From Candidatus Pacearchaeota archaeon (GTDB taxonomy: Archaea; Nanobdellota; Nanobdellia; Pacearchaeales; UBA284), in the NCBI GenBank assembly GCA_038894195.1, contig JAWAPZ010000004.1, positions 1 to 58,089 of the forward strand: DNA of 58,089 nt. The letters run 5' to 3'. The translations under genes and the position numbers were made by a program. Each line of letters opens with the position of its first letter. Position 1 is the stretch's first letter. Positions 1,315 through 44,009 of the stretch are shown here, one piece after another. The notes beneath the pieces are model-generated. The model ran no database searches and was not told the origin of the DNA. It saw only the letters and a list, made by a program, of their open reading frames with translations.

Positions 1315-2222
1315 AACTCACTCCAGTGAAGCACGTCAAAATAACAAAGAACCTTAAAGTCTCTGAACTTGTGAAACAAATGAAAGGAACAGCTCATAAC
1401 GCTCGCGCTCTTGCAGAAGCAGTAGAAATCCTTTTTCAAGCAAAGAAAGAAAACTGCAAATTGTTTGTTGGAATGGCTGGTGCCTTAGTTCCAGGAGGTA
1501 TGAAACAAATTATAATCGACATGTTAGATAAAAGAATAATCGATGTTTTTGTTACAACGGGGGCCAATTTAACCCATGATTTAATCGAAGCTTTAGGATT
1601 TAAACACTATCAAGGAAATGAACAAGATGATGTTGAACTACATAAAAAAGAATTAGACAGAATTTATAATGTTTTTATGCCTAACAAAGTTTATATTGCT
1701 TTAGAAAAATGGTTCACAAAAAACTTTGATAAGCTGAATGCAGAAACAAATTTGGAATTTTTATGGAATATTGGAAAATTACTTAAAAAAAATTCAATCC
1801 TTGCATCTTGTTATAAAAATAAAATCCCTGTTTTCTGTCCAGCTTTAAGTGATTCCGGAATTGGGTTAATGATATGGAATATTATTTTAAAAAAGAAAAA
1901 ACCTTTAATGAACGAATACCAAGACCTAAACAAAATGTTGGAATTAGCATGGTACAAAAAGAAAGCTGTCTTCTATGTTGGTGGAGGCACACCAAAAAAT
2001 TACATTCAACAGGCAATGCAATTTTCTAAGCCAGCCCTGTATGGAGTGCAAATAACAACGGATGAGCCAAGTTTTGGAGGTTCTTCCGGGGCAAGCCTGA
2101 AAGAAGGGATCTCCTGGGGAAAAATGTCAGAAAAAGGTAAATTTGTTGATATAAGATGTGATGCTACTATAGCTTTGCCTTTAACTTATGCTGCTTTAAT
2201 TGATAGACTAGAGAAACTTTAA
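1311..2222 (+). CDS. dys: deoxyhypusine synthase
   Basis: TTGANLTHD, PALSDSGIG, GGGTPKN, GGSSGASLKEGISWGK (active-site Lys). Confidence 0.93.
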   Translation: MKLTPVKHVKITKNLKVSELVKQMKGTAHNARALAEAVEILFQAKKENCKLFVGMAGALVPGGMKQIIIDMLDKRIIDVFVTTGANLTHDLIEALGFKHYQGNEQDDVELHKKELDRIYNVFMPNKVYIALEKWFTKNFDKLNAETNLEFLWNIGKLLKKNSILASCYKNKIPVFCPALSDSGIGLMIWNIILKKKKPLMNEYQDLNKMLELAWYKKKAVFYVGGGTPKNYIQQAMQFSKPALYGVQITTDEPSFGGSSGASLKEGISWGKMSEKGKFVDIRCDATIALPLTYAALIDRLEKL

Positions 2223-17662: not shown

Positions 17663-17720
17663 AAAGATTTTTTAAACCCTCTTTCTTTAAGGAAAATTGT
17701 AAGAAACCTAAGTTCCTTAT

Positions 17721-17910
17721 GCGCCAGTAGTCTAGTAGTTAGGACACGTCCCTGCCAAATAAGGAACACATTTCCTTATCAACCTTTGGAAAATAAGGAA
17801 CACATTTCCTTATCAACCTTTGGAAAATAAGGAACACATTTCCTTATCAACCTTTAAATTTTAGAGGGCGTGGAACGGACGCAACCCGGGTGCGAATCCC
17901 GGCTGGCGCA
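17721..17910 (+). tRNA. tRNA-Gly(GCC) with 118-nt intron (17758-17875)
   Basis: GCGCCAG/CTGGCGC acceptor stem, CGTCC-CT-GCC-A...C-GGACG anticodon arm, CCGGG-TGCGAAT-CCCGG T-arm. Confidence 0.92.
17758..17875 (+). repeat. tandem 34-bp hairpin repeat inside tRNA-Gly intron (34+34+50 nt)
   Basis: AATAAGGAACACATTTCCTTATCAACCTTTGGAA twice, then a third copy with 16 extra nt before TGGAA. Confidence 0.95.
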
Positions 17911-17948
17911 TGCATAACTTTTAAAAATATTCTTTTTCTGGCTTTTTA

Positions 17949-25067: not shown

Positions 25068-25198
25068 GGGCCCGTAGCTCAGTTGGATAGAGCACTAGCC
25101 TTCTACATAAAAAACCTCCAGCGGTTTTTTATGAATTCCAGCAACCATGCCGAGAAGAGGTTAGCTAGGGGTCGCAGGTTCGAGGCCTGTCGGGCCCG
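25068..25198 (+). tRNA. tRNA-Arg(TCT) with 57-nt intron (25106-25162)
   Basis: GGGCCCG/CGGGCCC acceptor stem, CTAGC-CT-TCT-A...A-GCTAG; CTTC pairs with intron GAGG (BHB-type helix). Confidence 0.92.
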
Positions 25199-27215: not shown

Positions 27216-27321
27216 AGCACGGGGAGGGACTTGCACCCCCGAATATCCGCTAACCACACAAGTTAAGGGAATGTGTCCCTTATTCTGCAGGCGGACGCCG
27301 TAGCTACTGGGCCACCCGTGC
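27216..27321 (-). tRNA. tRNA-Cys(GCA) with 33-nt intron (27284-27252)
   Basis: GCACGGG/CCCGTGC acceptor stem, TCCGC-CT-GCA-G...A-GCGGA, U73 discriminator. Confidence 0.92.
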
Positions 27322-42587: not shown

Positions 42588-44009
42588 CTAACCCTTTATA
42601 TTTCCTATTGGTTTTAATCTGCAGACTTTTTTAGCTAATCCTGCATTGTGGGTTGAATCAACAACATCCTCTACTGGTTTGTAAGCAAAGGGAGCTTCTT
42701 CAGCAAGTCCTGAAAAACTGTGGCATTTAACATAAATTCCTTTGACATTCAACTCTTCAATAAGTTTTGTGCCTCGCCATTGTTTTTTTGCCTGAGTTCT
42801 TGACATTGCTCGGCCAGCACCATGGCATGAGCTGAAAAAAGCCTTGCTTCCTTCTTTTGTTCCATGTAAAATGTAACTTGCAGTACCCATTGTCCCACCG
42901 ATAAGAACCGGCTGCCCTATGGTTCTATAAGCTTTCGGTAATTCTTTACGTTCAGGACAAAAAGCTCGAGTAGCGCCTTTCCTATGAACATAAACCTCAG
43001 AAATTTTATTATTAACTTTATGCTTTTCAGCCTTACACGAATTATGAGAAACCTCATAAAATGTTTTTATATCAGTCTTAGGAAAAATTTTCTCGCAACC
43101 CTGTCTTACAAGGTGTGCTATAACTTGTCTGTTTGCATGTGCATAGTTAAGAGCACAGCACATTGCTCCAAAATATCTGTGGCCTTCATCGCTTTGGATA
43201 GGAGCGCATACCAATTCGCGATCACGAATAGGAATTTTATACTTTCGAGAAGCTTCGGCCAGCACTTTAAGATAATCCGTACCTATCTGATGTCCTAAAG
43301 CACGAGAGCCACAATGAATCCATATCATTACTTGTCCTTGCTGCAAGCCAAATTTTTTTGCAGCTTGCTCATCATAAATTTCATCGATATAATTTACCTC
43401 AAGATAATGATTTCCAGAACCAAGAGTACCAACCTGCTTTTTTTCTCTTCTTAGAGCAAGATCGCTAACTGCTTCGGGCAAAGCACCCTGAATCGAACCG
43501 CCATCCTCGATGAACTGTAAATCTTCTTCAGTTCCATAGCCTTTTTCAACAACCCATCTAGCTCCAAGACTCAAGACATCATGAACTTCACTGTCCTTCA
43601 ATAAAATTTTTCCTCGAGAACCCAAACCTGCTGGGACGATTCTAAAAAGCTCGTCAATGAGCTCTTTTACCCTGGGCTTTACATCATCAAGCATCAAGTC
43701 AGTTTTTAGAGCACGAACACCACAACCTCCGTCAAAGCCTACGCCACCTACACTTACAACTCCATCTTGAGAAAAAGCAGCAACACCACCAATAGGAAAT
43801 CCATAGCCCCAGTGCGCATCTGCCATTGCTAAAGCTGCAAGTTGTATGCCAGGTAAGCAAGCAACATTACTCAGCTGTTCCCAAACTTTATCATCCATCT
43901 CACGAATAAGTTTTTCAGAAGCAAAAATTTTTCCTGGCACAAGCATTTCGTCCTGCTGTGAGATAAGCCATTCACAATCGCTAATCTTTTTGAATCTTTT
44001 AGGATCCAT
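42588..44009 (-). CDS. rtcB: tRNA-splicing ligase RtcB
   Basis: DAHWGYGFPIGG, GTLGSGNHYLE, HCGSR, HRKGATRA, HGAGR. Confidence 0.97.
   Translation of the reverse strand: MDPKRFKKISDCEWLISQQDEMLVPGKIFASEKLIREMDDKVWEQLSNVACLPGIQLAALAMADAHWGYGFPIGGVAAFSQDGVVSVGGVGFDGGCGVRALKTDLMLDDVKPRVKELIDELFRIVPAGLGSRGKILLKDSEVHDVLSLGARWVVEKGYGTEEDLQFIEDGGSIQGALPEAVSDLALRREKKQVGTLGSGNHYLEVNYIDEIYDEQAAKKFGLQQGQVMIWIHCGSRALGHQIGTDYLKVLAEASRKYKIPIRDRELVCAPIQSDEGHRYFGAMCCALNYAHANRQVIAHLVRQGCEKIFPKTDIKTFYEVSHNSCKAEKHKVNNKISEVYVHRKGATRAFCPERKELPKAYRTIGQPVLIGGTMGTASYILHGTKEGSKAFFSSCHGAGRAMSRTQAKKQWRGTKLIEELNVKGIYVKCHSFSGLAEEAPFAYKPVEDVVDSTHNAGLAKKVCRLKPIGNIKG

Follow-up and report, generated by a model that had tools for sequence, protein, structure and literature searches.

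Transposed families of tRNA introns were reportedly described for the Thermoproteales by Fujishima et al. in 2010. In these archaea, near-identical bulge-helix-bulge introns occur across isoacceptors of one genome, at position 37/38 and at non-canonical positions, and their transposition, for which the mechanism is given as unknown, is presumed to take place at the DNA level (PMC4090602; bioRxiv 10.64898/2026.10.13.758758; available parts of both texts). The review likewise treats the gain and movement of archaeal tRNA introns as processes of unknown mechanism (PMC4090602, available part). Variants of the tRNA-Thr(GGU) locus in a Caldiarchaeum subterraneum population differ in intron content, pointing to recent gain, and a recombinase-encoding 1.8-kb element is implicated in that case (Sugahara et al. 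2012, PMC3293823, available part). In DPANN lineages, single-subunit EndAs with an extra loop are described as accompanying heavily disrupted tRNA genes (PMC5829648, available part).

Here, a tRNA-Gly(GCC) gene with an intron of three head-to-tail units was analyzed together with two intron families, termed A and B, from the same genome. The tandem mini-intron array is a new form of the known transposed bulge-helix-bulge intron families. As in the Thermoproteales, families A and B are found in different isoacceptors and at both 37/38 and the T-loop. Unlike the Thermoproteales families, they belong to a DPANN-type genome, the piece that appears to move is a complete 34-35-nt mini-intron multiplying head to tail within one intron, one intron family is exchanged for another between strains that are 98-99% identical, and family A copies also lie outside tRNA genes. 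The Gly intron resembles a canonical EndA/RtcB-spliced intron in its location at 37/38, in its 4-bp helix between 3-nt bulges beside the anticodon stem and in the presence of genes for both enzymes; it differs in that the intron-side helix by the 5' bulge is an independent hairpin and in that the 3' splice-site half recurs in phase inside the intron. Natural variants of one tRNA locus differ in their introns, as at the C. subterraneum tRNA-Thr(GGU) locus, but the family A element measures 34-50 nt and the genome under study yielded no recombinase, transposase or reverse transcriptase (comparison limited to the available part of that account). As a short, hairpin-forming dispersed repeat with tandem clusters, some of them intergenic, family A is also similar to REP/MITE-like elements, from which it is set apart by the lack of a Y1 transposase match, of recognised terminal inverted repeats and of target duplications, and by the placement of most copies at intron base 2 in sense orientation. 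No description of head-to-tail repeated units in an archaeal tRNA intron was found in the literature searched (supplements and Fujishima et al. 2010 fell outside its scope), and the words "tandem" and "concatem" have no occurrences in the available text of an Asgard preprint (bioRxiv 10.64898/2026.10.13.758758).

The genome under study (G000) belongs to a small-genome (DPANN-type) archaeon and comprises 535 kb in nine contigs, with 33% G+C and a completeness of about 70% (69.9%). The window, that is, the whole stretch of 58,089 nucleotides that was analyzed, is its contig C4. Sequence of this genome was found in four DNA runs (X1-X4) from one hot-spring metagenome study; the runs were usable as unitigs, and their contigs break within the repeat, so that they provide junction depths only. 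EndA is encoded by a 189-aa ORF on contig C2 (L037:1219-1788; PF01974, 98.2 bits, one copy), and the RtcB RNA ligase gene that the initial annotation had placed in the window was recovered there by profile search (Table 1).

By using aragorn with introns allowed, tRNA-Gly(GCC) was called at 17721-17910 with a 118-nt intron at 37/38, and in-script excision of 17758-17875 yielded a 72-nt tRNA-Gly(gcc). Default aragorn returned no tRNAs in the window, and Rfam at the gathering threshold returned two other window tRNAs and missed this one; in both cases the gene was missed because of its long intron. The initial annotation had divided the intron into two identical 34-mers and a 50-mer, and this split proved exact by sequence comparison and by Tandem Repeats Finder (TRF), which reported a single array (17757-17855, period 34, 2.9 copies, 100% matches, score 198). 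Unit 3 shares its first 30 nt and its last 4-5 nt (TGGAA) with units 1 and 2. Folding agreed with the earlier account of a hairpin in every unit (8 bp, 5-nt loop, -6.1 kcal/mol) and of two features restricted to the last Gly unit: a second, 7-bp hairpin (17851-17867) and the GTGG (17870-17873) that pairs with CTGC (17752-17755) to form the central helix. The build of unit 3 is that of the single-copy 37/38 intron of tRNA-Lys(UUU). When unit 1 alone was excised, aragorn still called tRNA-Gly, now with an 84-nt intron.

The splice motif of the Gly intron consists of the CUGC/GUGG helix with bulges CA/A and AA/C (the slash within a bulge marks the cut), stacked on the anticodon stem, and the 5' cut falls within the 3-nt bulge 17756-17758. 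When enforced, this structure lies 2.3 kcal/mol above the minimum-energy fold. The bases 5' of GUGG are unpaired with intron bases 2-5, leaving out the outer helix of a strict bulge-helix-bulge; because the intron-side helix is a separate hairpin, the motif is classed as a relaxed bulge-helix-bulge. The introns of same-sample relatives at Gly 37/38 are very different; one of them, of 24 nt, ends in GCAG-AA before the cut, so that the GG/AG-AA intron end is dictated by the exon. In run X2, the tRNA-Gly(GCC) of another organism lacks an intron, and its acceptor, D and T arms are near-identical to those of the gene studied here (17739 joined to 17883; window 17719-17911). Besides this organism, two relatives have different introns at 37/38.

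Table 1. Locations of the features discussed. Positions without a contig name refer to the window.
Feature	Location	Strand	Basis or context
tRNA-Gly(GCC) 5' exon, positions 1-37	17721..17757	+	aragorn; spliced product is tRNA-Gly(gcc), 72 nt
CTGC, tRNA positions 32-35, 5' strand of central 4-bp splice-motif helix	17752..17755	+	enforced bulge-helix-bulge fold
Unit 1, 34 nt: hairpin 17759-17779, then linker with TTTGGAA end	17758..17791	+	sequence, TRF, fold
Unit 2, 34 nt, same sequence as unit 1	17792..17825	+	TRF, sequence comparison
Unit 3, 50 nt: first 30 nt of unit 1, second hairpin 17851-17867, GTGG, bulge AA/C	17826..17875	+	sequence comparison, enforced fold
tRNA-Gly(GCC) 3' exon including discriminator A	17876..17910	+	sequence; spliced product
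tRNA-Arg(UCU) intron, 57 nt: AUAA...UUAU hairpin of family A build, different inner stem	25107..25163	+	aragorn, fold
tRNA-Cys(GCA) 37/38 intron, 33 nt (gene 27216-27321)	27252..27284	-	nhmmer E=0.0038, aragorn, fold
RtcB RNA ligase gene	42591..43877	-	PF01139, 548.7 bits, 485-aa open frame
Family A, tRNA-Gly(GCC) intron			3 nhmmer matches
Family A, T-loop intron of tRNA-Ser(UGA)	contig C1 (locus C1:174968-175164)		3 nhmmer matches
Family A, intergenic array of 41-nt units	C1:18890-19038		4 nhmmer matches
Family A, introns of tRNA-Lys(UUU), tRNA-Cys(GCA) and tRNA-Ala(UGC)			1 nhmmer match each
Family A, intergenic, doubtful	C1:142060		1 nhmmer match
Array of 4 x 41-nt module units	G000 C1:18890-19140 (L003 about 1459-1710)		between divergent genes
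Module copy in G035	L007, about 1490-1550	-	
Module copy in G035	L009, about 1490-1550	-	
Family B intron	C1:136450-136621		
Family B intron	C1:115396-115606	-	
Family B intron	C7:389-510		
Family B intron	C1:56611-56737		

The hairpin module of the Gly units recurs elsewhere in the genome. An own-genome BLAST matched the Gly array again at C1:175035-175135 with 98% identity, along with weaker copies; a fuzzy search of the genome gave 11 module copies, and an nhmmer profile gave 14 matches at E<0.01, 12 of them at E<=4.4e-6 (Table 1). The T-loop intron of tRNA-Ser(UGA) measures 116 nt and holds three identical units with a period of 35 and unit ends GGAAG, and its excision restores the tRNA. 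A total of eight units, spread over three tRNA genes and two insertion positions, share 100% identity. Diverged single copies of the module open the introns of tRNA-Cys, tRNA-Lys and tRNA-Ala; in Cys(GCA), the hairpin at the intron start is a GGGA/TCCC variant and the end reads GTGG-TT/A, and in Ala(UGC) the diverged sense copy at the intron start is accompanied by an inverted one. A diverged copy also forms a stand-alone 35-nt family A intron in the T-loop of the tRNA gene C1:133446-133597, which consists of one base, the hairpin, CAACCCUU, AACGAA and AU. Family A thus occupies 37/38 (Gly, Cys, Lys) and the T-loop (Ser, C1:133446 and a tRNA-Pro on contig L020, below), and in most copies the module starts at intron base 2 in sense orientation. 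Genome-wide TRF assigned three of the four tandem repeats with a period >=30 and >=99% match to module arrays, and the 41-nt array is a separate event. Family A has a special tendency to array formation. A perfect 89-bp tandem duplication, intergenic and unrelated to the family A module, was also seen at C8:6955-7132.

An exact 21-mer scan of species-representative genomes led to the 3.1-kb contig L020, which carries two units 34 nt apart and is 98.4-99.5% identical to C1:54860-57985. Its tRNA-Pro(CGG) gene (minus strand, about 1240-1400) has a 79-nt T-loop intron of two units with a period of 34, of which the first equals the Gly 34-mer including the junction and the second has its own tail. 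At the same T-loop site, the orthologue in the genome under study (C1:56611-56737) carries an unrelated 55-nt family B intron, and both alleles splice in silico to a 73-nt tRNA-Pro. Since the Pro introns at this one site belong to different families in the two strains, which come from the same hot-spring study, intron content is subject to turnover even among strains this close. The two alleles also differ at the base of the exon that adjoins the intron and at three positions in the 20 nt that follow, with T at position 65 in L020, a pattern that looks like a recombination tract. Run X3 contains the L020-type tail. Apart from L020, the genome in which that contig was found does not belong to this organism: its other contigs lack the flanks of the Gly, Ser and intergenic loci and match by the repeat alone. 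Among the 23 other genomes of the family, none matched the Gly 5' exon at <=3 mismatches.

In a register scan of the intron arrays, a hypothetical 3' cut was slid through each array, and at each register a count was made of the pairs that the central helix's exon strand would form with the four bases opposite. In Gly (107 registers), four of four pairs formed at the true site only, and three of four formed in five registers, including both unit junctions (UUGG-AA/A). Five of the 105 Ser registers gave four pairs, namely both junctions (UGGA-AG/A), the true site and two in the terminal tail, leaving the unit junction as the sole such register within the repeated part; among the 68 registers in Pro of L020, only the unit junction did so (UGGA-AA/A), with three of four at the true site, and these two fits are not independent given the common tail and similar T-loops. 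Each of the three intron arrays has at its unit junction an in-phase mimic of a 3' splice site that ranks first or close to first. The Ser cut lies one base farther from the hairpin than the Pro cut, and the Ser unit is longer by one base (G), which keeps the junction in phase.

The register fit in three arrays and the stand-alone 35-nt T-loop intron support the view, already taken in the initial annotation, that the units are intron-like, and each of them can be regarded as a complete small intron. That annotation had also derived the units from the Gly intron's own ends, and here the data point elsewhere. The unit tail forms four of four pairs with T-loop exons (UUCA, UUCG) versus three of four with the Gly anticodon loop, and the junction TTTGGAA/AATAAGG is also found inside the Pro intron, which has a different 3' end; because of this better T-loop fit and the shared junction, the Gly units are read as T-loop-type, placed ahead of a resident intron. 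Enforced splice structures cost +2.3 (Gly), 0.0 (Ser) and +3.5 (Pro) kcal/mol at the terminal sites versus +7.9 to +9.4 kcal/mol at the internal sites, the latter being 5.6-9.3 kcal/mol worse, and on these energies the whole array should leave in one piece.

We place a probability of about 0.5 on the reading that family A is a dispersed, recently active family of introns and hairpins, amplified and exchanged at the DNA level. What has been shown is how the array is built, that the module is dispersed, that the intron is swapped between strains, that the junctions fit the splice register and that EndA and RtcB are encoded. Under it, tRNA-Gly(GCC) would be a working gene whose 37/38 intron is a resident 50-nt family A intron with two extra 34-nt units ahead. 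The 34-nt unit would represent a complete T-loop (59/60) mini-intron, composed of a leading base, the AUAAGG...CCUUAU hairpin, CAACCUUU, a 4-nt exon-pairing strand and a 2-nt bulge. Arrays would originate by tandem duplication of whole units, probably helped by the hairpin and by short in-phase A-rich repeats at both splice sites, and would subsequently grow by slippage. Copying between introns could then proceed by recombination across the common 30-nt module, and the two additional Gly units may have been gained from a T-loop array in this way. EndA and RtcB would remove the entire array in a single cut-and-join via the terminal CUGC/GUGG helix, and the internal junctions would act as weaker in-phase alternative sites whose use would still yield the correct tRNA.

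Several observations favor a DNA route: the incomplete genome gave no reverse transcriptase or Y1 transposase match, the last unit of each array is always unlike the others, the identical 30-nt module offers homology for out-of-register recombination between introns, short in-phase A runs are found at both splice sites, and the exon differences between the L020 and G000 Pro alleles resemble a recombination tract. Against it, random duplication need not match intron boundaries, and the in-phase microhomology comprises just 2-3 A's; that three arrays fit exactly in phase is easier to account for by selection or by a process for which excised introns are the substrate. The additional G of the Ser unit, with the register kept, also counts against a DNA route, and neither an intermediate at the DNA level nor a copy-number polymorphism or conversion tract was observed for the Gly locus. 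A purely selfish intron, moreover, sits poorly with a palindrome that in another family directly succeeds TATA boxes and that has been conserved at an orthologous locus. Family A lends itself to testing, since its alleles are polymorphic, its junctions are defined, the EndA to be expressed has 189 aa, and circles are predicted at 34, 35, 116 and 118 nt.

The copies outside tRNA genes bear on a second reading. In the genome under study, the array of 41-nt units comes after a TATA-like box and precedes a class I aminoacyl-tRNA synthetase gene. What comes after the array looks by eye like the degenerate 3' portion of a Gly/Cys-type intron, without recognisable tRNA exons. At <=2 mismatches, the 25-mer module was found in two of 41 relatives and in two of 401 sampled genomes of the order, with zero matches for a reversed-pattern control. 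The second genome with the module, G035, belongs to another family (f8) and carries the 25-mer with 0-2 mismatches at two sites, both right after a TATA box and about 20-30 nt before a start codon; the downstream genes are an 88-aa gene, which matched no Pfam family, and an Hjc resolvase gene. In G045, of the same genus as G035, a TATA-plus-palindrome cassette is present at the Hjc orthologue (G045 C1:79453-79497), and the module is absent from the orthologue of the other site. No convincing bulge-helix-bulge was seen by eye around the G035 promoter copies or the intergenic array. The exact 21-mer scan of genome contigs gave three stretches, from the close strain, from a site identical to that of G035 and from Ruminococcus, the last at an estimated chance-expected level. 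The same scan of metagenome contigs gave one match, which lies inside a coding region and was taken as chance, and zero matches in viral contigs. With respect to a possible guide RNA, no antisense 12-mer targets were found beyond two chance matches and the inverted copy in the Ala intron.

From these copies, the module can be viewed as a functional protein-binding site (a DNA operator or an RNA hairpin) that introns and promoters would keep so as to regulate, for instance, how tRNAs and aminoacyl-tRNA synthetases are expressed, or as a released multi-hairpin RNA, with tandem copies raising occupancy. Such a role for the palindrome is a serious, live rival because of the TATA-adjacent copies in another family, although we consider it unlikely. 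It would account for the near-identical 25-mer behind the TATA box of two G035 genes, for the cassette at the G045 Hjc orthologue, for the four copies that separate a TATA-like box from a class I aminoacyl-tRNA synthetase gene, for the CACAT loop kept in most strict copies and for units that are 100% identical within and between arrays. A conserved regulon is at odds with a module present in only two of 401 sampled genomes of the order and missing at the G045 orthologue of the second G035 site. Hairpins of the same build elsewhere have quite different stems, indicating that structure rather than a fixed binding sequence is retained; a DNA operator would not need to lie always at intron base 2 in sense orientation; the array periods of 34, 35 and 41 share no common helical phasing; and no partner protein was found. 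If the palindrome does act in this way, introns may carry regulator binding sites.

Somewhat less probable still is self-amplification at the RNA level, in which an excised 34/35-nt mini-intron, linear or circularised by RtcB, would be re-ligated at the 5' splice site of another pre-tRNA intron by reversed or mis-joining EndA/RtcB and copied back to DNA, each insertion adding one in-phase unit. This would fit units whose length is exactly that of an intron and which stay in phase across three arrays and three exon contexts, with a 1-nt change in Ser that keeps the register, as well as the precise intron replacement at one site between strains, the encoded EndA and RtcB, and the share of the family A element in the genome's perfect long-period tandem repeats (three of four). 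However, the last unit differs in every array, as it would not in a pure concatemer, the internal junction structures are 5.6-9.3 kcal/mol worse than the terminal ones, and copies also lie outside tRNA genes (the intergenic array and the f8 promoters), where a splice site is not evident by eye. We know of no RNA-to-DNA route for such archaea. Searches of the genome under study, at 69.9% completeness, gave no match to RVT_1 (reverse transcriptase) or to PF01797 (Y1_Tnp, HUH transposase); the missing reverse transcriptase is weak evidence, because the genome is about 70% complete. The boldest form of the idea makes family A a currently mobile 34-35-nt mini-intron that spreads as excised RNA by EndA/RtcB-mediated in-phase re-insertion at 5' splice sites of the T-loop and the anticodon loop, followed by fixation in DNA, with the arrays as footprints of repeated insertion and the Pro swap as a recent event; we hold it to be slightly more doubtful again. 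If RNA-unit mobility were true, it would give the first natural-population view of the long-sought mechanism of bulge-helix-bulge intron gain. Of the self-amplifying mini-intron proposed in the initial annotation, mobility in the broad sense is supported, given identical copies in three tRNA genes at two positions and the strain swap; circles, rolling-circle copying and RNA re-insertion found no direct support.

Replication slippage confined to the Gly intron and without wider meaning, which the annotation had left open, would have a classic substrate in perfect short-period repeats with a hairpin, but it is excluded as a private event by the identical units and the same junction in two other tRNA genes and by the structure of a single-copy 50-nt intron, in which the 34-nt unit is not contiguous and the junction GGA is absent, and we regard it as very improbable. 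An assembly artefact hiding a one-unit intron is equally improbable: short-read unitigs break in the repeat and the array is not covered end to end by any contig, so that copy number is supported and not proven, but in run X1 the Gly-type junction unitig has a depth of 16 versus 7.2-8.2 for the unique flanks, a ratio that fits two junctions and hence three units, a 99-nt array is presumably shorter than usual reads, and independent arrays exist in Ser and, in another assembly, in Pro.

Using aragorn on the genome under study, introns were predicted in 18 of 29 tRNA calls, some with doubtful isotype labels, and many have an AUAA...UUAU hairpin one base after the cut with a varying inner stem, which formed in most of the 18 folded instances. 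A filtered split-T-loop scan placed inserts at 59/60 in nine or more tRNA-like genes on contigs C1, C2 and C3, which aragorn and Rfam miss; isotypes of those at C1:133446, c210985, c149124, c115396, C2:28326 and C3:4980 are by-eye readings. Most of these inserts have GAA-AA before the cut, and several of the genes have at least two introns, with one at 37/38 and one in the T-loop in Lys(UUU). Three scan rows from two loci (C4:22935 and C6:13678/13683) were not tRNA-like and were set aside. The aragorn labels "tRNA-SeC" and "tRNA-Stop(tta)" (C1:56146-56262 and C2:26912-27033, minus strand) probably denote ordinary intron-containing tRNAs with misplaced intron calls.

Family B is defined by the hairpin CAGAAACC-UAC-GGUUUCCG together with CUUUCCC and comprises four introns, at 37/38 in Gly(UCC) and in the T-loop of Lys, Pro and Leu. 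Hairpins resembling those of family B were also seen in f8 genomes (L052, L053, L055 and L057), where they were located within tRNA introns, inverted at a distance of two bases ahead of the 5' ends of tRNAs, and in intergenic DNA.

Position 55 of tRNA is nearly universal. In tRNA-Gly(GCC) (GGGTGCGAATCCC, window 17882-17898) and tRNA-Cys(GCA) (GGGGGTGCAAGTCCC, 27216-27321, minus strand), T-loop positions 54-56 read T-G-C, placing a G at position 55, and the other listed tRNAs read TTC.
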